Part shown: positions 34,823 to 47,082 of the stretch, in pieces
Layout of the letters: each line of letters starts with the position of its first letter
How positions within the stretch are numbered: position 1 is the first letter of the stretch
Sequence record: NC_073060.1
Strand: one strand, 5' to 3'
From: Escherichia phage vB_EcoS_WF5505
DNA length: 47,082 nucleotides
The notes under the pieces: generated by a model
Told to the model about the DNA's origin: nothing
Seen by the model: only the letters and a program-made list of their open reading frames with translations
Database searches by the model: none
Made by a program: the position numbers and the translations under genes

Positions 34823-35047
34823 TTATTCCGCCTTTTTCCAGACTTCGGTTTCACTGTTCCAATTCCTCTTTGTGGCGTCGTAGTTGGTGGCGTGTCCAAT
34901 GTGCACACCGGTCGCGCGGAAGCTCTTAAACTTCTGCCAGCACACTGTCAACGGCAGCGGGTAATTCATGCCTGCGATAAACCATACGCGATCGCCAGGT
35001 TTGCACTCTCCCAGCTTGGTGAGTCGGTAATGTTCTTTCATCGTCAT
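34823..35047 (-). CDS. Hypothetical protein (74 aa)
   Basis: Track ORF between helicase and Zn-ribbon genes. Confidence 0.45.
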   Translation of the reverse strand: MTMKEHYRLTKLGECKPGDRVWFIAGMNYPLPLTVCWQKFKSFRATGVHIGHATNYDATKRNWNSETEVWKKAE

Positions 35048-35083
35048 GCCTCCAAAAATGGCGGGACAAGCCCGCCGTATTGA

Positions 35084-35257
35084 TTATTCTTGTTCTGCGC
35101 GATAGCGGCGCTGCCGATCACGTTCTTTCTTATTGCGGCACGATTTGCACTCGGCCCGATGCCCGTCTGGACTGCGCGCAGTCTTTCCGGTGTATTTGTG
35201 GAACTGGGATAGCGGCTTGATGCATCCGCAATTACTACAACGTTTTTCTTCAATCAT
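35084..35257 (-). CDS. Small zinc-ribbon protein (57 aa)
   Basis: CxxC...CxxC: MIEEKRCSNCGC...ECKSCRNK; GAGGA RBS; in frame inside track ORF 35084-35317. Confidence 0.5.
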   Translation of the reverse strand: MIEEKRCSNCGCIKPLSQFHKYTGKTARSPDGHRAECKSCRNKKERDRQRRYRAEQE

Positions 35258-35297
35258 TTCTAAAATCCTCGATAGGGCTAACCGGCACACTATACCG

Positions 35298-35576
35298 CTA
35301 CGCGACCAATTCAGCAACCAATAAATCGCAGTCGGCTATGTTGTCAATAACGCGAACGTCAGCACCGCGGCGGGCCATTCGCTCATGTTCTCGCACCTGG
35401 TGCGGCTTCGGTTTTCCTCCGGGGCGCTTCACTTCGACGAATACTATGATGCCGTTGATGATAATAATCAGGTCGGGCGCACCTGCGCGCCCCTCCCATG
35501 CCAGCTTGCGGCAGAATCCGCCAACCTCTTTCACCCGTCGCATCAGGTGACTTTGAATATTGCCTTCTGGTGTCAT
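35298..35576 (-). CDS. VRR-NUC domain nuclease
   Basis: 92 aa with IIIINGIIVFVEVKRPGGKPKPHQ (PD-(D/E)XK-type VRR-NUC core). Confidence 0.65.
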   Translation of the reverse strand: MTPEGNIQSHLMRRVKEVGGFCRKLAWEGRAGAPDLIIIINGIIVFVEVKRPGGKPKPHQVREHERMARRGADVRVIDNIADCDLLVAELVA

Positions 35577-35768: not shown

Positions 35769-38060
35769 TTACTTCCTGTACCGATACATAATGTCGCCTT
35801 CGGCGGCAAGTGGGAAACCTTTCGCCCATATAGGCAGGTCACACATCAGCGCGCAAAGCTCCTCGGTCGTGTAATCGTCGGTGTCCGGCACTTCGGTGAT
35901 CAATTCATCGTGCACTGACAGGACGATTTCATAGCCCGCAGCTTCAACACCAGGCATGGACCATGCGAGAATATCGCGGCACAACGCCTGTACGATGTTC
36001 TCCGTAAGTTTGCCGCCGTAGGTGTACTGGAATCCCCACTGGCGCGTCGTCTGATTCTCGCCCTGGTATTTGATGCGGGTACTGGTGCGCTTCTTGCCGG
36101 TGTCTTCGTCAATCTCGGTAGTGACAGACAGCGCGATTCCGGGGTAGCTCATGATTCGCCCTGACGGCAACTCAACCTTCAGCCACCAGCCCGCGGCGTT
36201 CGGGTCGTCGCGTTCCTCGTCAAAGGTGGGGTCGTGCTTCGCCTTCGTGCGCACAATCTTGAGCGCTTTCTTGCCATCCGGGCGAACGTTCGCGCCAGCC
36301 CAGTATGCCTTACCTGGATTGCGTATCGCACATAACACCGCCTCCTCAAGCTCGGCCCAAAAGGCTACGGTCTTCGGGTGAGATTCACGCCACATACGTT
36401 TGATCGCGTCGCAGGTCAACCACACGTTTTTAGGCAGTATGTAAGTCGGGCGCTCGTCTTTCTTGCCGGGCTTCGGCGGGCGCTTCGCTTCGTTGATGCG
36501 GGCAAACTCATAACCGCGTTTAGCCGCCGCCCAAATATGATCGGGGAATGTTCCCTTCATGACGTCAGCCATTGCGTACAGGTCGAGGCCCAGGTTTTTA
36601 GCAAACTGCAAGAACGCCGCGACGCCGCCACCATAGCCCAGTCCCAATTCACACGCCTTACCAATCTGGCGTAGGTCTTTGCGGTTGGCTTTGATGTAGT
36701 CCGGGTCAAGGCCAAACATCTTACCGGCAGTTTCACAATAGATATCGCGTCCGGCCTTAAACACCATAAGCGCGGTTTTCTCGCCAGCGATCCAGGCAAG
36801 GCCACGCCCTTCCACGTTGGAGTAGTCCGCTACAACAAACTTCTTGCCCTTAGCCGGGATAATGCACCCGCGAACGGTCGAGGCGGTTAGCTTCGATATG
36901 TCATACGCCCAGTGCGCGGTCCCGCGTAACAGGGAGTTGATGCCGTTGGTGAGCATGTGCGACCGTACCCAAAACGAGACGTCGCTCTCACCTTCGCGGC
37001 GCTTAATCTTCCCTTCGTGGTCATCACTGTACTCGCCACGTGCCAGGTTTTGAGGCTGAAAGCCTTTACCGGCCCAGCGTAGTGTGCGCTTTGCCCCACC
37101 ATACTGAAGACAACCACGGCGGCGACCATCGGCAGAAAGACCATTGACGAGCGGATTGTATTTAGTCGATGCCGTTGATGACGCGCCGAGGCGCATTTCA
37201 ATAAGCACTTTGCCCTCGTCGGGGAAGTCTGGATCTTCCAGCAAGTCATTCAGCGTGGATTTCTGCGCGTTGTGAATGGTGAACGCCGGGGCAATATCAC
37301 GCAGGATTGGCAGGAAGTCATTACCGGTCAGTTTACCGCCGAACAGTTCCCAGGCTTCTTCCTTCAATTCTTCTTTGTGCACCTGCACCGCCTTGATCGC
37401 GGCGTTCGCCAGGTCAACGTCCACATAGAAGCCACGGTCGTTAATCAACTGGTCGATACGCAGGATTTCATCTTCCTTCGGTGAGTTGCCCCAGTCCGGT
37501 ATTCGCCAGTAGACTTCACGCATTGCGATAATATCCAGCGCGGCATAGCGCAGGAATTTAGCCCATTCTTCAGGGTGAGTCTCGCGCGTGTAGCGGCGGA
37601 TTTTGTAGGTCTTAGGGGTCGGCTTACAAAATCGCTTAATCAGCGCCTTGCCTGCCTTATCCTTCGCGTGCTCTGCGTCAACGCCCAGCACCTGGCATTG
37701 CATATCGAGGCCACCCGGCAGCGCGTGACGAAAGGCCATAATCATAGTATCTTCGATCTGGCTTACCGGCAGGTCGATACCCCACTTTTCACGGATAACC
37801 AGGCGGTCAAACAGGAGGCCGTTAGCCATCACTATTTTTGCTTTCTTGCGGGATACGCGGCGGAGCGCCTTGCGTAGTTCGCGCGGCATTGTGGGGGATT
37901 CAGTGGCGTCCCATGTCTGCACGCGGCCCTCGTCGATGGCGTAGGTGCAAATCATAATCTCGGTGGATGGGTGTTCCGCGTAGGCATACGCACCTGCTTT
38001 CTTCAGGTCTACCCCGCTAAACGTCTCGGTGTCTAGAAACAGGCGTTCGAAGTCTTTCAT
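35769..38060 (-). CDS. DNA polymerase, family A, with 3'-5' exonuclease domain
   Basis: 763 aa; N-terminal Exo I motif LFLDTETFSG; polymerase-like motifs further on; within replication gene cluster. Confidence 0.85.
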   Translation of the reverse strand: MKDFERLFLDTETFSGVDLKKAGAYAYAEHPSTEIMICTYAIDEGRVQTWDATESPTMPRELRKALRRVSRKKAKIVMANGLLFDRLVIREKWGIDLPVSQIEDTMIMAFRHALPGGLDMQCQVLGVDAEHAKDKAGKALIKRFCKPTPKTYKIRRYTRETHPEEWAKFLRYAALDIIAMREVYWRIPDWGNSPKEDEILRIDQLINDRGFYVDVDLANAAIKAVQVHKEELKEEAWELFGGKLTGNDFLPILRDIAPAFTIHNAQKSTLNDLLEDPDFPDEGKVLIEMRLGASSTASTKYNPLVNGLSADGRRRGCLQYGGAKRTLRWAGKGFQPQNLARGEYSDDHEGKIKRREGESDVSFWVRSHMLTNGINSLLRGTAHWAYDISKLTASTVRGCIIPAKGKKFVVADYSNVEGRGLAWIAGEKTALMVFKAGRDIYCETAGKMFGLDPDYIKANRKDLRQIGKACELGLGYGGGVAAFLQFAKNLGLDLYAMADVMKGTFPDHIWAAAKRGYEFARINEAKRPPKPGKKDERPTYILPKNVWLTCDAIKRMWRESHPKTVAFWAELEEAVLCAIRNPGKAYWAGANVRPDGKKALKIVRTKAKHDPTFDEERDDPNAAGWWLKVELPSGRIMSYPGIALSVTTEIDEDTGKKRTSTRIKYQGENQTTRQWGFQYTYGGKLTENIVQALCRDILAWSMPGVEAAGYEIVLSVHDELITEVPDTDDYTTEELCALMCDLPIWAKGFPLAAEGDIMYRYRK

Positions 38061-38285: not shown

Positions 38286-39074
38286 TTAGCGGCGGCGACG
38301 TTTACGTGGTGCTTCGTCTTCGTCGTCTTCGCCCTCATCTTCGTCATCGCGGGACTTACGACGCTTGCGAGGTTTCTCATCTTCCTCGTCTTCGTCATCG
38401 TCGTCGCGGCGCTTGTACTTCTTGGACTTGCGCGGCTTATCATCTTCGTCATCGTCATCGCGACGTTTGGACTTCTTAGCCTTGCGCGGTGCTTCATCTT
38501 CGTCATCGTCGCCCAGGTCGTCATCGGAACAAGAAGACCCGCCGCCACCGAAGGAATCACCATCATCACGGAAGCGAAGACCCATCAAACCGGCACCGAG
38601 TCCTTTACCGTTGGTGTTGTTCCACGCCCAAATATCCAGGGACACGTTGCAATAACAACCGGAATAGATTTCCTGGCCTTCGATCTCGTCGCCGTCGATG
38701 GTCAGACCCTGTTCGGTCTGCTTCTCGCCCAGTGACGTTTGGATGTTAGGCTGTTTGAACGATTTGGCGTTGATGTACAGCATGCCTTCAAACTCTTCGG
38801 TTACTTCGTCGCGCTCATCACCGTCGCGAACTGCGCATTCCTTAGAATCCTGGGCGTAGTGGCGGTCCATCCACTTATCGGCGTTCTTCTCGGATTTCAG
38901 CTTGTCGGTGAGCACTGCGCGCGCTGCCGCTTCCACTTTGTCCACCTGCGGATCTTCTTTATCAAGAAGAATCACGGCACGGTATGCCGGTTTTTGTCCA
39001 TCCTGTTTAGGGGTATCACGTTCCCAAATTTTCAGGAAGCATACGCGCACGTTTTTCAGGTTGACTTTAGCCAT
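38286..39074 (-). CDS. Putative ssDNA-binding protein (DUF2815-like) with charged repeat tail
   Basis: N-terminus MAKVNLKNVRVCF; C-terminal about 80 aa of alternating (D/E)n and PRK-KK-KRR blocks; adjacent to polymerase and nuclease. Confidence 0.5.
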   Translation of the reverse strand: MAKVNLKNVRVCFLKIWERDTPKQDGQKPAYRAVILLDKEDPQVDKVEAAARAVLTDKLKSEKNADKWMDRHYAQDSKECAVRDGDERDEVTEEFEGMLYINAKSFKQPNIQTSLGEKQTEQGLTIDGDEIEGQEIYSGCYCNVSLDIWAWNNTNGKGLGAGLMGLRFRDDGDSFGGGGSSCSDDDLGDDDEDEAPRKAKKSKRRDDDDEDDKPRKSKKYKRRDDDDEDEEDEKPRKRRKSRDDEDEGEDDEDEAPRKRRRR

Positions 39075-39163
39075 TTTTCATTTCCTCATTTCGCATGTAT
39101 CGGGGTTATTGTGAGCCACCCCGTTCGGCTTGGTTGCTAATTTACTTGGTTGCGCCTAAGCGG

Positions 39164-39406
39164 TCAAGCACTTTTATTAAAAAGATTTCGGGTCACGTAG
39201 TCGGAGGCGTTCTCGATCCAGCTTAACGGCGGGCGGTCTTTATGCTTTAACACCCAGTCTACGGCAACGTCACTGTAGCCATCGTCCAGCCAGCGGGATG
39301 GATGGCGAATCATCCAGGCCACCATTAACACGCCTTGCACGCAATGCAGGATAAATCCCAGCGCGCCGAGCATAATCATCAATACGAATGCAAATACCTT
39401 ATTCAT
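39164..39406 (-). CDS. Small membrane protein (80 aa)
   Basis: Two hydrophobic helices (FAFVLMIMLGALGFILHCV, VLMVAWMI). Confidence 0.45.
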   Translation of the reverse strand: MNKVFAFVLMIMLGALGFILHCVQGVLMVAWMIRHPSRWLDDGYSDVAVDWVLKHKDRPPLSWIENASDYVTRNLFNKSA

Positions 39407-40799
39407 TGCTTAAGTCCTCGTCAGTAGCTTCAGACCACGCGGGGCGCGGGTCATCGATTGGTGCCAACACCGGTTTAGCCGGTGCGCGCGTGATTTTATC
39501 ACACAATTTCGCCCACACTTTCGGTTTCTCGTCCTTCAATACCTTCTCGGCATCGGTAGGACTGAGTAATGTTTCTTTATACATTACGTCACGCTTGATC
39601 CGGGCCTTCGTGAAGACTTCAATCACTTCGCTCTCATCCGCCCACTTGCGAATCCCTTCCTTACCGGCAACCATCTTGAGGCCCAGCGATTCACCATCGC
39701 CCGCCATTACGGCCTTGAATACCGCGGACTCGATAGCCTTGATGTGCTGGCGCATTGCGTCAAGACCTTCATATGCCTTGCGCAGTTCCGCCGCGCTCAT
39801 AGCGCCTGGTGCTTCTTCTTCTTTCTTGCCACGCTTCGCACGTCGTGCCGCTTTCCGGGCTTCGCGATCGGTAGCCTTCGGTGCTTCGTCCGCCAGGTCG
39901 TCGTCTGTTGCCGTTGGTGGGGTCATCGTGTCGATGGCGGCCTTAGCGCGGGCACTACACTGATCCGCAAATCTACACCACTGACAGGCATCAACGCTCG
40001 GTCGGAAGTCGGCACGGGTAAGTCCCTTCTTGCCGCGGGAATACGCGTCCAGTGCGTCAATAGCACGCTTGGATGCAAACTTCGCGAATATCTCCAGCGC
40101 TTCCACGGTAATATCCCACTCCGACGCCCCGCCGCAATACGGCTGGAAGATTACCAGGCGAACGGTTGTAATGTCGTACATGGTTTGCAGCTTGCGCAGC
40201 AGGCCCAGCGCGTACAACATAAGCTGTTTGTTTTCTTTCGCCTCGACCTTATGTCGCCCGGTCTTCAGGTCGCCAACAATAAGCATGTACGTGCCGTCGG
40301 TCTTCTTCATGACCATGACCATATCCGCAGTGCCGAACGTCTTAACCCTGTTGCCGTCTATCTCGAAGCCGGGGTGCAAGATGCGGGTGAGATCGGCGCG
40401 CATTTCAAGCTGGACAAACTCCGCCACTTCAAGGAGCGGTCGCCAGTGGTCGATGTACGCGTCACACTGTTTCACCATATCGTCGTTGACCAGTACGCCG
40501 CCTTTCGGTGCTTTCGGGTGCGCCTTTACCGGCCCCTTACCTTCGTTCTCAACGTAACACCCTTTGTACGTCTTCGCGGATAGCTTCTTCTCTCCGGCAA
40601 TGATGCGGTTTAGCACGACTTCTGATACGGTGTGCATACTCGTACCGTTAATCGCAGCTTGCCCGGATTCGTTCGGGATACCTTTTTCGACTACCAGGGC
40701 GGCGGGGCACCCCATCCATTTTTTAGATCCCGATGGCCCGAGTAATGAGTGTTCGGTATTGCTACCGGATTGCGTTTTGCGCTTTGGTTTAATAGCCAT
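39399..40799 (-). CDS. RecB/Cas4-like PD-(D/E)XK exonuclease (DUF2800-like)
   Basis: 466 aa; C-terminal Cys cluster CQWCRFADQC; family assignment from recalled domain architecture. Confidence 0.55.
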   Translation of the reverse strand: MAIKPKRKTQSGSNTEHSLLGPSGSKKWMGCPAALVVEKGIPNESGQAAINGTSMHTVSEVVLNRIIAGEKKLSAKTYKGCYVENEGKGPVKAHPKAPKGGVLVNDDMVKQCDAYIDHWRPLLEVAEFVQLEMRADLTRILHPGFEIDGNRVKTFGTADMVMVMKKTDGTYMLIVGDLKTGRHKVEAKENKQLMLYALGLLRKLQTMYDITTVRLVIFQPYCGGASEWDITVEALEIFAKFASKRAIDALDAYSRGKKGLTRADFRPSVDACQWCRFADQCSARAKAAIDTMTPPTATDDDLADEAPKATDREARKAARRAKRGKKEEEAPGAMSAAELRKAYEGLDAMRQHIKAIESAVFKAVMAGDGESLGLKMVAGKEGIRKWADESEVIEVFTKARIKRDVMYKETLLSPTDAEKVLKDEKPKVWAKLCDKITRAPAKPVLAPIDDPRPAWSEATDEDLSNE

Positions 40800-40984
40800 T
40801 ATTCCACCCTTGTAAACTGGACAATTACATATTTACAGATATTAGCCATTCCCGCCTGTTCGACACGGCGGTGCACTTCATGCTGCGCATCTATCCAGCA
40901 CATCGAGGCGTCATGGTTAACAACCATAAAAGAGAAGTGGTCGTTTGTTTTGTGGCAAGTTGCCAGCACGAAGAATTTAGCCAT
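40799..40984 (-). CDS. Hypothetical protein (about 61 aa)
   Basis: Start MAKFFVLATCH within track ORF 40799-40999, overlapping upstream stop. Confidence 0.4.
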   Translation of the reverse strand: MAKFFVLATCHKTNDHFSFMVVNHDASMCWIDAQHEVHRRVEQAGMANICKYVIVQFTRVE

Positions 40985-41235
40985 TATTTCGTCTCCCAAC
41001 GGTCAATTACTTTTTCCTCCGACGATACGGCAAAGCGAACATATTCCAGATTGGAGTCCGCCCAAATATAGAAGTCGGGGTTAGTAAATGTGGTGCGCTT
41101 AATTTGCGCGGGGTTATCGCGGCGTTTATCTATTACGGCAACGCGTGATTTAAAGTTGCCGGTACGTTCGAATAGCCAATAATAAGGGCGCTGGTCGCGT
41201 GAATCCACCGCCTCGATTAGCGTGAAGCGTGCCAT
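40984..41235 (-). CDS. Hypothetical protein (83 aa)
   Basis: Track ORF. Confidence 0.45.
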   Translation of the reverse strand: MARFTLIEAVDSRDQRPYYWLFERTGNFKSRVAVIDKRRDNPAQIKRTTFTNPDFYIWADSNLEYVRFAVSSEEKVIDRWETK

Positions 41236-41283
41236 TGTCTCGTCCTCTAAAAATAGGCCCGCAGATTAGCGGGCCGGATAATA

Positions 41284-41805
41284 TTAATCTTCTAATTCGA
41301 AATACGTTTCTACGATTTCTTTTAAATCTTTGTGGAAGTCTTCGACGTCGTCATCTTCCAGCTTGGCAACGGATTTAATTTCGAACGCTTCCAGCAGATC
41401 ATCAAATTCGTCGTTTGCGTCGTCGTCATCACCGCCCGCAATAATAGCGGCATACTGCTTGATTTCGTCGCGCATTTCTTTCAGCGGATCGGCATCTTTC
41501 TTGCCTTTACCTTTCGCCGGTGCTTTCTTAGACTTCGCTGGGGCTTCTTCTTCGTCGTCCGCGTCGTCGTCTTCTTCTACGGCTTCTTTCTTAGCCTTGC
41601 CCTTAGCCGGGGCTTTTTTGGTCTTAGCCGGAGCTTCGTCTTCAGCGTCGTCATCTTCGACCACTTCTTCTTTCGCCTTGCCATTAGCCGGGGCTTTCTT
41701 CGCTTCCTGTTTACCAACGGCAGCGCCAGCAGTTTCATAATGCTTAGCGATTACTTCCAGTGCTACTACGCCGCGTGTGATCAGGTTTACGATTTGCTCA
41801 AACAT
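41284..41805 (-). CDS. Hypothetical acidic protein with tandem charged repeats (173 aa)
   Basis: Two copies of (D/E)n-EAPAK-KKAPAKGK-KK, then acidic C-terminus; first gene of the minus-strand module. Confidence 0.55.
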   Translation of the reverse strand: MFEQIVNLITRGVVALEVIAKHYETAGAAVGKQEAKKAPANGKAKEEVVEDDDAEDEAPAKTKKAPAKGKAKKEAVEEDDDADDEEEAPAKSKKAPAKGKGKKDADPLKEMRDEIKQYAAIIAGGDDDDANDEFDDLLEAFEIKSVAKLEDDDVEDFHKDLKEIVETYFELED

Positions 41806-41906
41806 GGTATATCTCCGATTGGTTAATTTAAGTGTTCGGTGCGGTGTGCCCCGTCAACGAGGTGAATAATAGATTGGTTGCAGGCGGGGTGTCAACAACT
41901 AATTTC

Positions 41907-41942
41907 AAAAAAAAAAGCGCCGAGGCAAAATGCGACGGCGCT
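41907..41942 (-). terminator. Rho-independent terminator (minus strand) in divergent intergenic region
   Basis: On minus strand AGCGCCG-loop-CGGCGCT followed by T10; lies upstream of the 41805 start. Confidence 0.55.
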
Positions 41943-42012
41943 AACCAATAAGAGACAATGAGACGTGATTATTATTACACGCGTGCGCGCCCGTTTCAAT
42001 ATTCAAAAGGAG

Positions 42013-42041
42013 TTGACACCCTGCAATTTTAGGTGTAGTTT
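42013..42041 (+). promoter_or_regulatory. Candidate sigma70 promoter for HTH regulator gene
   Basis: Consensus -35 TTGACA (42013-42018), 17-bp spacer, -10-like TAGTTT; about 30 bp upstream of ATG 42073. Confidence 0.4.
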
Positions 42042-42072
42042 CGTTGGTCATTAACCAATAGGAGACAGAACA

Positions 42073-42402
42073 ATGCATATCAACGACGCAATCGAAATGT
42101 TAACCAATGCTGTTAGCGGTGAGACAAGCCGGTCCTGGGCTTATACCGATGCCGTGGGTGAGGTGCTATTTGAAATCGAACGTCTGCGCAGTGTCGAAAA
42201 AGAATTGCGCGCCAAGCTGGAATTGCTAAACGGTACGGCAGCAAGCAAGTTGCAAAAGCACAATGAAGAAATGGAAGAATACAAAAAGCAGGTTATCCGT
42301 TTGCGCGACGAGGGCAAGTCCTGGGCGATGATTGCCGAGTTGACCGGAATTAATCAAAGCACCGTGCGCTCCTGGGTACGCAATAATAAAACTTCTAAGT
42401 AA
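42073..42402 (+). CDS. HTH DNA-binding protein (putative transcriptional regulator)
   Basis: 109 aa; C-terminal HTH-like SWAMIAELTGINQSTVRSWV; N-terminal coiled-coil-like region. Confidence 0.6.
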   Translation: MHINDAIEMLTNAVSGETSRSWAYTDAVGEVLFEIERLRSVEKELRAKLELLNGTAASKLQKHNEEMEEYKKQVIRLRDEGKSWAMIAELTGINQSTVRSWVRNNKTSK

Positions 42403-42412
42403 GGCATCGGCA

Positions 42413-44677
42413 ATGAGCTTAATTAAATTCGCAGTAACAAGACCCGCTAAAAAAGGCGAAAAAGCCAGGGCGGAAAACTTCGAGATGACCACTGATGAAT
42501 TTTTCGAATTTATCAATGATGCAAAAGAAATCTCGTCGGTGCATATCAACAAGACAGAAGATAAAGCCGAGTATGCGCGCCGCAAGCGTAAGGCCGATGG
42601 TATCGTGGCATATACCAATGACGGATTACGCCGCAAGACCAGTGCGGTCGACCGCTCGATCCTGTTCTTCGATATCGACCGTACTGACACCCGCACTTTA
42701 CGCCGCTGCCGTAAGGCGTTCACCGACGCTGGTCTGGAGCATGTATTTCACACCACGACCGGCGACCGTCACCCGTTGAAAGGCGGAACACGTTGCGCCC
42801 GTTTCCTGGTGCTCACTGATAAGCCTGTACCGGCGGAAGACCTGGGCCGCGTCCAGTATGCATTGTTAGACCAACTGGGCCTGTCAGATGTGGACTTCGA
42901 CGATTGTACAAAAGACACAAACCGCCTTATGTACCTGCCTCACCAGCAGTCTGTCATAAAGTGCCATTATGGCAAGCGCGCCCGTGTCCGTCGTCTGCTT
43001 CGCCTGGCTGACAAGCTGGGAGTTGAGAAAGAGGAAGTGCGCCGCGAACTGACCCAGGGCGACGATGGCGTGGCGGACGGGATTCTGGACTGGTGCTTCC
43101 AGGCTGGCTTTGAACCACTGTCATCCGGTCGCGGTTATGAAGTGCCGTGCCCGAATGAGCACCTGCATAGCGGTGAAGGGTCGACGGCTATCATGGTTAA
43201 GGATGGCGAGATCCGTTTCAAGTGTATGCACACCGGCAACGAATGCTGTTCCGAACTGAATAAACACCAGCACCTGGCGTTACGTCTGATCGGTATCCCG
43301 GACCACTTGAACGTCGAACCACACAACATGTCACGCAAGCAAATCGCCGCCATCCTTCCTGGACTGGACGACGAGGAAGTGGAATCGTGCTACGAGCATA
43401 TTGTTGATGCGGTCGGAGACGGCGACGAGTACGGCGAATGCACCGACGCTGACCTGGACAACGAGCCGGTCGCACTGTTCAGTAAGCACGACCCGATTAT
43501 CGAAGGCCTGGTCAACTTCAAATCGACCTGGTATATGGCGGGTGAGTCGAACATTGGTAAGTCGTTCTACGTGCTGGGCCAGATGGGCGCTGTTGCCGCG
43601 GGCATTCCGTTCGGCGGCGCGAAGGTCGTCCAGTCGCATTGCTTCTATTTCGATGCGGAAGGCGGCGAAGCCTCCAACCAGCGTAAAGAAGCATTGCAGA
43701 TCAAATATGAGCACGACCTCGACAAGCTGCACATTATCGACCTGCAATCACGCGGCTGGGATATTACCAGCAAGTCAGGCTTGCGCGAGGTTATCAGCTT
43801 TATCAACCGCACCGCTAACGGGGAGCCGGTTGGCCTGGTGGCCTTCGACTCACTCAACCAGACTGTAGCGCTGCGGTCCGCTGATGCCAAACCGTTCGAC
43901 GAGAACAACGCAAGCGATATGGGCGAAGTGGTCAAGGCGCTGAAGTCCATTGCGGAAAATACAGGTGGCAGTGCGGGCGTCATCCATCACCCGGCTAAGG
44001 GTGCAAACGGCAGCAGGTCACCACGCGGGTCCGGCGCGCTTCATGGTGCTGTAGATTCTGCGTTCTTCCTGGAACAGCCGGACGATAATCAGCCAGGCCA
44101 GCTTAACCTGTATCACGAAAAGTCACGTAACGGCATCAAGCAAGCGCCGCGTGGCTTCGTCCTGCTCAAGTGCAAAGTTAAGGTGGATCTCCGTAAGTCT
44201 GATGCGTTCGAAGCCCACCAGTCCACCAGCACCGGGCCAGACTTCGGCGATGTGGTTGCCGGTTGGGACGTCAAGCCAATTGCATCCACGCCACGCGACG
44301 AGACTCTCTACCTCGTACCGGTCGCCCTGGCACCGTTCGCTATCGAACAGGCTAAGGCAGCAGGCAAGGCAGCAGTTAAGGAAGAGAACACCGCCGGACC
44401 GCGCAACGAGAAAGAGAAGGTGCTTTATGCGGCACTGGAAAAACTGATGGAAGATAACCCGGACCATACTGGATTCAGTAAATCGGCAATTGTCCGCCAG
44501 GCTGGACTTGCGAAAGGTGGCACATCGACGAAGGCAATCGACGATATGGTAGAGCGCGGAGTGCTCGGATTTTATACAGACCCACACACCGGGGCCATCT
44601 ATGGGTCGTCGAATTTAGTCATCAAATCGGATATACCCATCACGCTTTCAGCGACCGATGACGACCTGAAAGATTAA
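42413..44677 (+). CDS. DNA primase / replicative helicase
   Basis: 754 aa; Cys/His cluster CPNEHLHSGEG...KCMHTGNECC; C-terminal Walker A GESNIGKS; coupled to HTH gene. Confidence 0.7.
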   Translation: MSLIKFAVTRPAKKGEKARAENFEMTTDEFFEFINDAKEISSVHINKTEDKAEYARRKRKADGIVAYTNDGLRRKTSAVDRSILFFDIDRTDTRTLRRCRKAFTDAGLEHVFHTTTGDRHPLKGGTRCARFLVLTDKPVPAEDLGRVQYALLDQLGLSDVDFDDCTKDTNRLMYLPHQQSVIKCHYGKRARVRRLLRLADKLGVEKEEVRRELTQGDDGVADGILDWCFQAGFEPLSSGRGYEVPCPNEHLHSGEGSTAIMVKDGEIRFKCMHTGNECCSELNKHQHLALRLIGIPDHLNVEPHNMSRKQIAAILPGLDDEEVESCYEHIVDAVGDGDEYGECTDADLDNEPVALFSKHDPIIEGLVNFKSTWYMAGESNIGKSFYVLGQMGAVAAGIPFGGAKVVQSHCFYFDAEGGEASNQRKEALQIKYEHDLDKLHIIDLQSRGWDITSKSGLREVISFINRTANGEPVGLVAFDSLNQTVALRSADAKPFDENNASDMGEVVKALKSIAENTGGSAGVIHHPAKGANGSRSPRGSGALHGAVDSAFFLEQPDDNQPGQLNLYHEKSRNGIKQAPRGFVLLKCKVKVDLRKSDAFEAHQSTSTGPDFGDVVAGWDVKPIASTPRDETLYLVPVALAPFAIEQAKAAGKAAVKEENTAGPRNEKEKVLYAALEKLMEDNPDHTGFSKSAIVRQAGLAKGGTSTKAIDDMVERGVLGFYTDPHTGAIYGSSNLVIKSDIPITLSATDDDLKD

Positions 44678-44769
44678 ATTTTGCGCGCATTGGTTGCCAT
44701 TTTGAGTGTTTTTAGCTGGCCGCATTGGTTGCCGTGTAGTGTAAATATAGTGAATAGTTATGCAGTTTT

Positions 44770-44945
44770 ATTGCATAAAACAAACGGGACAAAAAGCGGG
44801 ACAGACAGGGGGCGGGACAAAGCGGGACAGCACCCCTGTCCCGCCCCGGATTACGCGGCTTGCAGGGGTGCGGGACAGGCGGGACAAACCCCAGTCTTTC
44901 AGACTAGACGGGGGTCAGTTGGCCCCCCTCGTCTGAGACTGCATA
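44770..44945. repeat. Non-coding iteron element B
   Basis: TGCATAAAACAAACGGGACA..., four or more GCGGGACA repeats, GC hairpin; about 85-90% identical to 17476-17645; after primase-helicase and before right terminal repeat. Confidence 0.8.
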
Positions 44946-45159
44946 AAATCCTGGATTGCATAATGCACGGCAGCATGATGAGAATTGCGGTCGTTGATGA
45001 ACTAGGCAACCAATGCGAGTTGGATAATGGAGAGTGAAAAATGCAGTTTGCAGTTACAGCAGATAGCGATCAACTTTTTCATACGCATGATTAATATTGG
45101 TTGCATTCAGCCTGGCACCCTGCTAGATTGGTTGCACACCAACGAGAGGACCAAACAAA

Positions 45160-45330
45160 ATGAAATTTCCAGTAACCATCAAAGACGGTAAATCAACTAT
45201 CACCTTCACCAGCAACGACCAGGGCACCTATGAAAGCGGGGCGACTTGCATGTCTACCCTGGACGATGTGATGATTCGTGTTAATTCCGGTAAAGCCTCG
45301 ATTGTTGACGACAACACTAAGAAGGACTGA
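45160..45330 (+). CDS. Duplicate of 104-274 (small early protein)
   Basis: Inside right repeat, identical sequence. Confidence 0.5.
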   Translation: MKFPVTIKDGKSTITFTSNDQGTYESGATCMSTLDDVMIRVNSGKASIVDDNTKKD

Positions 45331-45333
45331 ACA

Positions 45334-45639
45334 ATGAGAGCATTAATCTGGAAATACTCACGGGCCATAGCGAAGCTGGACGAAGCGAAAAACACAAACG
45401 GCAACGTAGACTATGCGCGCCAGTTTGCGGCACGGGCACACCAACACATCATGAGTGCGCTCGACGATATGGACGCCAGCATGGATGACCTGGGTCCGCT
45501 GCGTAAGGCTATCCATGAATACGCGCTGGCATTCTCCCGTGAGCGCCTGGCCTATCGCTTCGGTATTGGCGATAAGGCAGTGACAAACGTTGCCCGGATT
45601 AAAGCCCAGCGTGAGCTATTCGCCCAGCTTGCGAAATAA
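45334..45639 (+). CDS. Duplicate of 278-583
   Basis: Identical translation in ORF track. Confidence 0.6.
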   Translation: MRALIWKYSRAIAKLDEAKNTNGNVDYARQFAARAHQHIMSALDDMDASMDDLGPLRKAIHEYALAFSRERLAYRFGIGDKAVTNVARIKAQRELFAQLAK

Positions 45640-45648
45640 GAGGCCAAA

Positions 45649-45918
45649 ATGACCCGTAGACGCGCAAAACAGCTTTCGTGGCATATCCCCCTGCATTGCA
45701 TACGAATATGGGCTAAGAATGCGAATGAGGGCGATTCAGTGTTCTGGTGCTATCGCGACGACGTTAAGCCGTTGACGCAGACTCGCTACTTGCACCAGTT
45801 CGCAGCACAACACGATTTCAGGGTGCGGACTTCCTTGCAACCAATGGGGATCCGTATTACATTACGCCGGAAGCCCGCCGTTGAGCGGGTAGGCAAACAC
45901 TGGAGACTGAGCAAATGA
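45649..45918 (+). CDS. Duplicate of 593-862
   Basis: Identical translation in ORF track. Confidence 0.55.
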   Translation: MTRRRAKQLSWHIPLHCIRIWAKNANEGDSVFWCYRDDVKPLTQTRYLHQFAAQHDFRVRTSLQPMGIRITLRRKPAVERVGKHWRLSK

Positions 45919-46259
45919 TTCGAGTAACCGCACGCCACGAACAATCGGGGGCCACTTACGATGTAATCGACGTTCGCGGCGCGTTCGTCATCTTCGGACG
46001 GGGTGACGACCGGCTGGCGCTGCCGATCGGTATGCTGAGCACATACGACTATTTCAAGCATAACGTCCGGTGTGGCGATGTGCTGCGCGATAAGCGCACC
46101 GGTGAGCTATGGACGGTGGCGAGTATTTGGGTGAAAGATAAACGGCAGCACACGTTATTGCTCGCCCGCCCGGATTGCAAACAGCAAACTATTAACACTA
46201 TTGGCCTGGTGGACTACACCCGCGTAGGCCGTAACGCTACCTGGAGACTGAGAAAATGA
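45915..46259 (+). CDS. Duplicate of 859-1203 (paralogue A)
   Basis: Identical translation in ORF track. Confidence 0.6.
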   Translation: MIRVTARHEQSGATYDVIDVRGAFVIFGRGDDRLALPIGMLSTYDYFKHNVRCGDVLRDKRTGELWTVASIWVKDKRQHTLLLARPDCKQQTINTIGLVDYTRVGRNATWRLRK

Positions 46260-46888
46260 AATTACTATTCCGCCGTAACTCAGATGGCTATATCCTGAAG
46301 CCGATCCAGACCCTATCGAACTGGGTACGCCTCCACCACGTTGCGAGTGATAAAGTCTGGTGGGCGACTAAGGCAAAGCTGCCGGAGTACTACGAAATCC
46401 TCACACACGATATCGAGCGCGGCGATGTGCTGCGGGATATTCGCGACGGGCAATTGTGGGTCGTGGAATACGTGGGTCGGCACGGCCTGCGTATGACGTC
46501 CCGCAAGGATGGCGTAGCGGGCAACATGGTCAAGGGCATGACTTACTTCGGGCTACTCCACTACGAACGAGTGGGCCGCAAGTACAGCCTGCGTGCGCGC
46601 CAGCCTCATGAGCGAGCGAACGCCATAGCGGACGTCGTTAACCGCGTAGCGCGGGAGGTGGAGCAGAAGACACGCGTTGAGTTCTGCAAGTCCCAGCCAG
46701 CCTATGCAACCTACGACGCGAGCAAAGCGCAGGAATTGATCCGCAGTGCCACGCATGAAATCATCAATCACGTTGATGCCATGACGAACGCCAAGCGCCA
46801 GGCCAGCGAATACGGCGTAGGATTCATCCGTGTCGAACAAGACGGCAACATGACCGCCATCGACCCGCGCACGGTAATACTGAAATGA
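46256..46888 (+). CDS. Duplicate of 1200-1832 (paralogue B)
   Basis: Identical translation in ORF track. Confidence 0.6.
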   Translation: MKLLFRRNSDGYILKPIQTLSNWVRLHHVASDKVWWATKAKLPEYYEILTHDIERGDVLRDIRDGQLWVVEYVGRHGLRMTSRKDGVAGNMVKGMTYFGLLHYERVGRKYSLRARQPHERANAIADVVNRVAREVEQKTRVEFCKSQPAYATYDASKAQELIRSATHEIINHVDAMTNAKRQASEYGVGFIRVEQDGNMTAIDPRTVILK

Positions 46889-47009
46889 GCGCAACTATCC
46901 GTGATATGCTTATGCATAACCGCTTTGAGATAGGCGGGAGAGTGTTCTGCAATTACTTCGTGGCGCGTGCTTGGGCGCGCCATATCGGAAAACCAGTAGG
47001 GGCAATACG

Positions 47010-47082
47010 ATGCTACACGATTTGATATTTTGGTTTGGTTTGGGGTGTGCGTCACTCTTTGCTATAGTGCTGGCGCTGTTGA
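47010..47082 (+). CDS. 5' fragment of duplicate of 1954-2241, truncated by window end
   Basis: Same sequence as 1954-2026; the window (and the repeat) ends inside the gene. Confidence 0.4.
   Translation, partial: MLHDLIFWFGLGCASLFAIVLALL

Follow-up and report, generated by a model that had tools for sequence, protein, structure and literature searches.

We analysed a stretch of 47,082 nucleotides from Escherichia phage vB_EcoS_WF5505 (record NC_073060.1; hereafter the window), and in particular the gene at positions 41284..41805 of its minus strand, which encodes a 173-amino-acid (aa) protein with charged repeats. [quoted passage not shown] The gene has a promoter and a terminator of its own, and its product consists of three parts: an N-terminal helix, a disordered charged linker and a small helical C-terminal domain. 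It occupies a syntenic place in a replication-recombination module, it repeats a unit that is also found in the SSB tail, and in related lineages the very end of the protein co-varies with that of the cognate SSB. What is new here is this family-level picture and the resemblance to the SSB tail, from which a testable mechanism for SSB-tail regulation follows.

A first-pass annotation, made from the sequence alone, had described a 173-aa minus-strand open reading frame (ORF) with two charged repeats at 41440-41720. Both are indeed present, and this interval brackets the repeat found by Tandem Repeats Finder at 41490-41668 (period 90, 2.0 copies, 74% matches, score 195). As delimited by this program and by alignment, unit 1 covers residues 46-73 (EEVVEDDDAEDEAPAKTKKAPAKGKAKK; 41587..41670, minus strand) and unit 2 residues 74-103 (EAVEEDDDADDEEEAPAKSKKAPAKGKGKK; 41497..41586, minus strand), with 23 identical residues and one 2-residue gap between them. 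The translation also reveals a partial unit, comprising the basic half, at residues 33-45 (QEAKKAPANGKAK; 41671..41709, minus strand). The two DNA copies differ at many synonymous sites, e.g. GCT CCG GCT AAG versus GCC CCA GCG AAG, which indicates that the duplication is old and has been retained as peptide. This bears on the idea that the DNA repeats themselves are functional, for example as origin iterons lying inside the gene as in lambda O, with the peptide being incidental. A tandem 90-bp repeat near divergent replication-gene promoters would suit such a role. However, besides the many synonymous differences, the copies are 74% identical as DNA and about 82% identical as peptide, viable relatives have anything between no unit and about three, and the reading frame is kept in 101 of 104 homologs; we give the iteron idea hardly any credence.

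The SSB of the window is of the Enc34/gp2.5 type (38286-39074, minus strand; Pfam PF10991 match on its OB part), and translation of its C-terminal tail, residues 186-262 (38289..38519, minus strand), shows four acid-then-basic units, including DDDEDEAPRKAKK, EDDEDEAPRKRRR and EDDEDEAPRKRRRR, with the end RKRRRR. When the units are compared, the SSB has EDEAPRK followed by a basic run (DDDEDEAPRKAKK, EDDEDEAPRKRRR) where the 173-aa protein has EDEAPAKTKK and DDEEEAPAKSKK, and the motif common to both is E-D-E-A-P-[AR]-K. The distribution of charges is similar as well. In the linker of the 173-aa protein (residues 31-104; 41494..41715, minus strand) acidic and basic residues are segregated into blocks, with a charged fraction of 0.55, a net charge of -3 and a kappa of 0.49 (z 7.0) that none of 1000 shuffles reached, and the SSB tail is equally blocky (kappa 0.55, z 10.3). 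The match in repeat chemistry between the two proteins, already noted in the first-pass annotation, agrees with these comparisons. Across the clade, the SSB tails carry 1-4 units of the acid-then-xPR(K/R)-basic type.

High charge segregation in both disordered regions (z of 7 and 10) also raises the possibility of an electrostatic condensate scaffold, in which the blocky regions of the 173-aa protein and of the SSB tail would coacervate and thus gather the replication proteins into a compartment without a membrane. Of the four phage proteins seen in infected cells (see below), two are these, and it is in the same clades that their unit numbers have grown. On the other hand, there are natural variants nearly without a linker, and in other lineages the linkers of relatives are rich in lysine but not blocky, and their acidic tips are short. 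We consider a scaffold to be a rather improbable explanation of the protein; such a role is nevertheless compatible with the data and does not exclude the sharing of docking sites.

The second line of evidence for shared docking sites comes from lineages in which the SSB tail is of the classical acidic kind, those of the phrog_7721 type (described below). There, the protein at the head of the module has its own C-terminal acidic tip, and the tips of this protein and of the SSB form pairs such as DDDEV/DDDEV, DDDEDM/DDEEEM, ADDDI/DDDDI, GEGEDL/GGDDDL, ASDDI/APDDI and SRKRDDIT/GRDDDIA. Of the 20 tip-bearing lineages left after dereplication, 17 have the last residue in common with their cognate SSB; the permutation mean is 8.15, and none of 100,000 permutations reached 17. 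All 20 lineages whose head-of-module protein has an acidic tip have SSB tips without F, and the tip is absent from all 16 F-type lineages.

Several observations weigh against this reading. The figure of 17 out of 20 is inflated by shared ancestry, and the I, V and M tips may correspond to only a few independent switches. Smith-Waterman comparison of cognate and non-cognate tails of the head-of-module protein and the SSB in 11 lineages gave no significant difference (p 0.07-0.25). Within Dhillonvirus, the numbers of units in the 173-aa protein and in the SSB show no correlation; in one locus (L013), five acidic and four basic blocks stand against two and two in its SSB. The likeness to the SSB tail in Dhillonvirus is internal and not C-terminal, the protein of the window ending with ...TYFELED inside its last helix, with no acidic tip bearing a hydrophobic last residue, and the extrapolation from the tip-bearing lineages relies on remote homology over 39 aligned columns. 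Near-linkerless natural variants exist (P0097, 115 aa, with a 16-aa linker), and this implies that the units are dispensable or redundant. The N-terminal helix is predicted with moderate confidence only (predicted local distance difference test, pLDDT, of about 67), and a second AlphaFold2 model, made for the shortest variant P0097, had a pLDDT of 45.8 and was left unused because of this low confidence. Finally, a similar composition could have arisen via shared mutational bias or ectopic recombination between both genes.

If docking sites are nonetheless shared, the 173-aa protein would present an SSB-tail-like segment to the site or sites at which the SSB tail docks; we propose this because of the unit in common with the tail of the phage's own SSB and because acidic tips copy the cognate SSB in related lineages. 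The OB groove of SSB, the polymerase, the primase-helicase and the exonuclease are candidate docking sites. The N-terminal helix and the C-terminal domain would give a second contact, through self-association or with another partner, and the protein would be an adaptor or a competitor tuning the traffic between SSB and its partners at forks or recombination intermediates. The common binding site, the identity of the partner and the direction of the effect are the elements that we infer.

There are precedents among T7-type systems. T7 gp4 has a tail resembling that of the SSB and directed at one and the same site on the polymerase. The acidic tails of T7-type SSBs touch polymerase and helicase, and they dock into the OB sheet of a neighbouring SSB, as is seen when Enc34 ORF6, further DUF2815 proteins and T7 gp2.5 are crystallised (PMC5686142, PMC10359462). 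The tails of these SSBs (T7 gp2.5; Enc34 ORF6, PF10991/DUF2815) are disordered and highly charged, like the linker studied here, and the unit (D/E)n-[AK]P[AR]K-basic occurs both in the SSB tail of the window and in the 173-aa protein. In contrast to T7-type SSBs, however, the 173-aa protein has no OB fold and its segment is an internal linker between helical modules; also, acidic and basic blocks alternate in the tail and linker of the window, while the tails of Enc34 and T7 are acidic throughout.

The idea of a shared interaction partner, which had been offered as a hint from the sequence, gains indirect support, both from the place that the superfamily occupies beside exonuclease, SSB and PolA and from the 17 matching tips. 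We doubt somewhat, but consider worth stating, a broader version in which the Dhillonvirus protein represents a class of small phage proteins, widespread but so far undescribed, each of which displays a copy of the tail of its own SSB. As decoys or adaptors at the docking sites of this tail, they would control the hand-off between SSB, polymerase, helicase and exonuclease, and in the Dhillonvirus/Guernseyvirinae clade the blocky acid-basic version may in addition drive electrostatic co-assembly with SSB.

Two distant phages show other forms of such tails. In Loktanella phage pCB2051-A (L066 5980-7008), the SSB tail has about eight (D/E)n-EPRGRGR units, an extreme of the acid-then-basic design, and the head-of-module protein ends with ...DEDPAPSRKRDDIT where the SSB ends with ...EPKSSRRRRSTGRDDDIA. 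In Xanthomonas phage XAP3_005 (L062 4623-4997), another small protein, the second one encoded upstream of the exonuclease, has the end EWDDDIPF. This end resembles the C-terminal tip of bacterial SSB (DDDIPF), and the protein could thus mimic the SSB tail of the host.

The three-part architecture was derived from an AlphaFold2 run with a 68-sequence alignment (mean pLDDT 62.4), charge statistics and homolog searches. Residues 1-30 (41716..41805, minus strand) contain a conserved amphipathic helix at residues 2-26 (hydrophobic moment 0.43), and R11, V13, A15, E17 and A20 of this helix are invariant across the wider family. The linker is predicted to be disordered, as its pLDDT is lower than 50; this applies to residues 24-102, one residue excepted. 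Residues 105-173 (41287..41493, minus strand) form an acidic domain of three helices (107-124, 128-140 and 151-169) with block-mean pLDDT of about 88-93 over residues 111-170. The first-pass annotation had assigned the protein an acidic C-terminal helix; the acidity was correct, but there is a three-helix domain instead of a single helix, and the N-terminal helix has to be added.

The 101 intact close homologs, out of 104, are 115-179 aa long. Their mean pairwise identity is 95.7% over the first 30 residues and 89.3% over the last 69, and the linker between these ends varies from 16 to 80 residues with 0-4 acidic blocks, 30% lysine and a mean net charge of +0.86 (range -6 to +8). As linker length is free while both ends are constrained, the repeats behave like an expanding and contracting tether between two modules. 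The charged repeats are a length-variable flexible linker, not the functional core. Nor are they a low-complexity artefact devoid of conservation, since the acid-then-basic pattern is kept across genera, only the copy number being variable.

A histone-like role had also been suggested for the protein, and its KKAPAKGK blocks might bind DNA in the manner of lysine-rich repeats of the H1 or AlgP type; the lysine content of the linker and its PAK and KK motifs are what one would expect in that case. The whole protein, however, has a net charge of -23 and a pI of 4.4 (the C-terminal domain contributing about -19), every basic block is accompanied by an acidic block of equal size so that the linker is nearly neutral, and a Pfam scan revealed no DNA-binding domain. 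A histone-like DNA binder is thus highly improbable.

As to its relatives, the 173-aa protein falls, as a near-identical member, into a family that is already catalogued but has no functional label. In the profile search that the first-pass annotation recommended, it matched phrog_3127 over its full length (E 9.5e-50; residues 1-173 on positions 1-178 of 178), which the homolog from Kagunavirus Sciku matches too (E 9.6e-67). A Pfam scan of the protein found no domain, enzymatic or DNA-binding, in agreement with the earlier statement that it has no recognisable enzymatic motif. Among 1.8 billion representative proteins, residues 102-173 (the C-terminal domain plus three linker residues) had 32 matches, down to 35% identity, and nearly all full-length members of this set have the N-terminal helix motif (ERFVVAHELIA-like) and a charged middle. 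A profile search puts the family at 2323 members or more; no member bears a functional name, one is auto-named TonB (JGI), and some have two C-terminal domains. Searches for solved structures yielded no significant relative: the best E values were 0.14 (a designed protein) in the sequence search of the PDB, 0.77 in its profile version and 0.58 with Foldseek against the PDB, where none was <=0.001. Against the viral library BFVD, Foldseek found family members only (eiAU Gp46, St162 and the MB78 '13.88 kDa late protein').

The gene order is highly regular. In 51 family-anchored loci, wherever the flank suffices, DUF2800, SSB, PolA and SNF2 come after the gene on its own strand, and upstream of it there is the primase-helicase, which is divergent or, in one clade (L048-L058), co-directional. 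This makes the gene a constant component of the replication-recombination module, which goes beyond the earlier description of it as the first gene after the divergent promoter at the head of the minus-strand replication module, although in the window this description is accurate. When phages were reached via the SSB instead (1375 SSB-bearing phage records), Chi-like, Xanthomonas, Pseudomonas, Loktanella and Streptococcus phages were found to have a 110-160-aa protein in the matching slot, with an N-terminal helix, a lysine-rich low-complexity linker and a small helical C-terminal domain. Two of these proteins, from the Chi-like and Xanthomonas phages, were scanned against PHROGs and belong to phrog_7721. 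A hidden Markov model of the C-terminal domain picked up an ORF 1.1-2.3 kb upstream of SSB in 71 of 88 loci fetched via the SSB or matched through it, and hhalign of the family alignment (A2) with the phrog_7721-type alignment (A5) gave a probability of 83.7% (E 8e-6) over 39 columns, covering the last two helices. These alignments lend moderate support to the view that the phrog_3127 and phrog_7721 types would constitute one head-of-module C-domain superfamily, as we define it here. The C-terminal domain has a median net charge of -1 in the wider superfamily, compared with about -20 in Dhillonvirus, whose SSB tails carry basic blocks.

The 173-aa ORF is a real, separately signalled gene. Besides the phrog_3127 match, the codon-position pattern points to the minus strand, with 88, 50 and 507 substitutions at codon positions 1, 2 and 3 of its frame, as counted in seven Dhillonvirus sequences over the conserved N-terminal and C-terminal regions; the stop codon is at 41284-41286. 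A Shine-Dalgarno sequence GGAG (41813..41816, minus strand) lies 7 nt before the ATG, enclosed in a leader motif, TAACCAATCGGAGA, found by motif scan at 41812-41825 (minus strand). Further upstream, a scan found a sigma-70-type promoter, TTGACA-18 nt-TATTAT, with 11 of 12 matches (41866..41895, minus strand), and an alignment of 22 upstream regions shows that it is kept in Dhillonviruses. Directly past the stop codon, a hairpin scan identified an intrinsic terminator, GGCCCGC-TAATCT-GCGGGCC then TATTTTT (41256..41275, minus strand), with a stem of seven pairs, all GC. In nearly all of the Dhillonvirus loci that were inspected, the same hairpin comes after the stop codon, and other clades have GC-rich hairpins at this place. 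The terminator loop itself exists in two mirror forms among Dhillonviruses (TAATCT or AGATTA; L012-L040) with identical stems, as if the hairpin had been inverted.

An antisense ORF, 41332-41826 on the plus strand, is annotated in the Bas83 record instead; we rejected it, since the wobble position of the minus frame is its first codon position. For another antisense frame, 41330-41740 on the plus strand, the wobble position is the same and codon-position analysis is thus not discriminating. This frame is serine-rich and has no matching expression signals, and its serine richness is an expected by-product of the GAN/AAR sense codons. Record PQ658967.1 names the 173-aa gene 'prohead core protein', which is an annotation error, as is the Bas83 ORF.

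The 173-aa protein counts as an abundant early phage protein, a homolog of it being expressed during infection. In cells infected with phage EE09, only four phage proteins were detected at 25 min, namely CDS29, CDS40, CDS56 and CDS61 (PMC10673088). We found that CDS56 (34845-35543), annotated with a spurious N-terminal extension, is the homolog of the 173-aa protein, and that CDS61 is the SSB. CDS56 was not among the 24 proteins of the EE09 cell-free lysate (PMC10673088); its presence in infected cells and absence from this lysate argue against a virion or prohead core protein. The terminator right behind the gene fits bulk, stoichiometric production.

Early, bulk production of an acidic protein would also suit a DNA mimic, another role proposed from the sequence. 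In this scenario, the acidic C-terminal domain would block a host nuclease, either RecBCD, as lambda Gam and T7 gp5.9 do, or a restriction enzyme, as Ocr does. The net charge of the protein (-23, with about -19 in the C-terminal domain) and the abundance of the EE09 homolog would be as expected, and so would the position of the gene, which is the first one behind a strong early promoter, has its own terminator and lies upstream of exonuclease and annealing/SSB genes much as lambda gam precedes bet and exo. In general terms the protein does resemble T7 Ocr, T7 gp5.9 and lambda Gam, which are likewise early, abundant, strongly acidic and non-enzymatic. However, neither the PDB searches nor Foldseek revealed a sequence or fold match to solved mimics; hhalign to lambda Gam gave a probability of 0.3%, the likeness being confined to a local stretch of 16 residues (KSITRAFDDDVEFQER versus KSVAKLEDDDVEDFHKD). 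The acidity of the C-terminal domain is not kept in the superfamily, the gene belongs to the fixed, syntenic core in different genera and is not a variable accessory, and Dhillonviruses have been described as sensitive to type I and type II restriction-modification, in comparison with Queuovirinae (PMC8594841). An anti-host or anti-defence mimic is, in our opinion, unlikely. The original observation is therefore confirmed and its interpretation supported in part, with a shared partner being favoured over both the histone-like and the DNA-mimic role.

The position of the gene at a divergent early control region raises one more possibility, that of a regulator of transcription or of the host nucleoid, binding RNA polymerase, a sigma factor or H-NS. 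The gene adjoins a helix-turn-helix gene and a promoter cluster, and small acidic helical domains occur in transcription and nucleoid factors. Against this stand the loci L048-L058, where the gene lies between the co-directional primase-helicase and the exonuclease and not at a divergent control region, and the Foldseek matches to RNA-polymerase-related chains, which are weak (TM-score <=0.17). As such a role would also leave the co-variation with SSB tips unexplained, we regard it as very unlikely.

Among known systems, lambda Orf and the C-terminal three-helix domain of Red-beta, which binds lambda Exo and SSB, also represent a small helical module near an exonuclease and a ssDNA-binding or annealing gene. 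By analogy with these Red-like mediators, it is plausible that the 173-aa protein acts at the interface between SSB and its partners. No significant relationship to Red-beta was detected (hhalign probability 0.25%; Foldseek match to its C-terminal domain, 6m9k_E, E 5.3). The Glu-Pro/Lys-Pro spacers of TonB-type proteins are similar in that an acidic run is followed by a proline-rich basic one, most clearly in relatives such as EPEPEPEQEEEEEAPKPKAKAKAK. Nevertheless, this is a cytoplasmic phage protein with neither a membrane anchor nor, according to Pfam, a TonB C-terminal domain, and its N-terminal helix is amphipathic, with R11 and E17; the name 'TonB' given to one family member thus reflects composition only.

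Other candidate identities were rejected. Ksap1, the Dhillonvirus trigger of KpAvs2, is restricted to Dhillonvirus and has a response-regulator-like fold (PMC11564622), whereas the present family reaches far beyond Dhillonvirus and is all-helical plus disordered. Anti-Tmn, a Dhillonvirus ORF35 product (PMC11846954), does not correspond either, as the 173-aa gene is a core gene and its product has no beta-strands. The trigger of RAZR is a different protein, the portal protein. An EF-hand reading of the GGDDDDANDEF loop fails on inspection, as the consensus positions do not fit.

The module to which the gene belongs, with its exonuclease, gp2.5-type SSB and PolA, is present in well over 1000 sequenced phages, including therapy-relevant coliphages and Salmonella phages, and its SSB and polymerase are known triggers of the Retron-Eco8, Hachiman and Borvo defence systems. 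Its first gene has been annotated inconsistently, as hypothetical, 'prohead core protein' or 'TonB', or on the wrong strand, and this annotation is now corrected. Even if the SSB-tail hypothesis proves wrong, the protein is still among the most highly expressed unknowns of these phages.

The window as a whole represents the complete genome of a Dhillonvirus (an HK578-like coliphage, i.e. an E. coli siphophage) of 45,056 bp plus a 2,026-bp wrap-around. Positions 1-2026 are identical to 45057-47082, so the genes located there are present twice; this is due to terminal redundancy or circular assembly. Over 39000-45000, the genome shares 96.9% identity with Escherichia phage SP1, and there are matches to 157 phage records. 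On the minus strand, the 173-aa ORF is followed by an 83-aa ORF, an ORF of about 60 aa, the DUF2800 exonuclease of the PD-(D/E)XK type (39399..40799, minus strand; Pfam, synteny in the 51 loci), the SSB, the family A DNA polymerase PolA (35769..38060, minus strand; Pfam, synteny) and the SNF2 helicase. The 83-aa protein (40984-41235, minus strand) is encoded after the terminator and matches phrog_4965, which has no function label. It is kept beside the 173-aa gene in Guernseyvirinae-type loci too (27-36% identity), as a second fixed companion in the module.

On the plus strand, beyond a control region of 267 bp, there is a 109-aa helix-turn-helix protein (42073-42402, plus strand), for which only its C-terminal part matches HTH_23 and Sigma70_r4_2, and then the divergent AAA_25 primase-helicase (42413..44677, plus strand; Pfam, synteny). 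The 109-aa protein, variously labelled 'transposase', 'DNA recombination nuclease inhibitor gamma' and 'resolvase' across records, is probably a regulator of the divergent promoters.

The motif TAACCAATNRGAGA occurs three times in the whole window (0.09 expected), always in the divergent control region: at 41812-41825 (minus strand), 41942-41955 (plus strand) and 42052-42065 (plus strand). Each site is located just 5' of a start codon, namely that of the 173-aa gene, of a 24-codon ORF (from 41958) and of the helix-turn-helix gene (42073), and the motif may be a common leader or operator element overlapping ribosome-binding sites.

Many Dhillonviruses (EE09 at L011 34700-34850, as well as L002, L003, L006 and L013-L025) have about 140 extra nucleotides between the promoter of the 173-aa gene and its ribosome-binding site, which are missing from the window. 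In several records this insert is translated as a 60-aa N-terminal extension (MQDANWRG...). Changes at the protein level are non-conservative, and one predicted stem pair in the insert takes four pair types (A-U, C-G, U-A and U-G). For both of these reasons the insert resembles a structured RNA leader, with variation that is too low to prove a fold. A search of Rfam with the 173-aa gene and the control region of the window gave nothing near the gathering score.

Upstream of the promoter of the 173-aa gene, a hairpin at 41916-41942 is followed by a run of ten T, and this arrangement is kept in all aligned Dhillonviruses (41906-41999, minus strand). Together with a promoter-like site at 41999-41971, it could yield an RNA of about 58 nt. 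This candidate RNA would be antisense to the ribosome-binding site of the 24-codon ORF and complementary at 15 of 16 positions to that of the helix-turn-helix gene.

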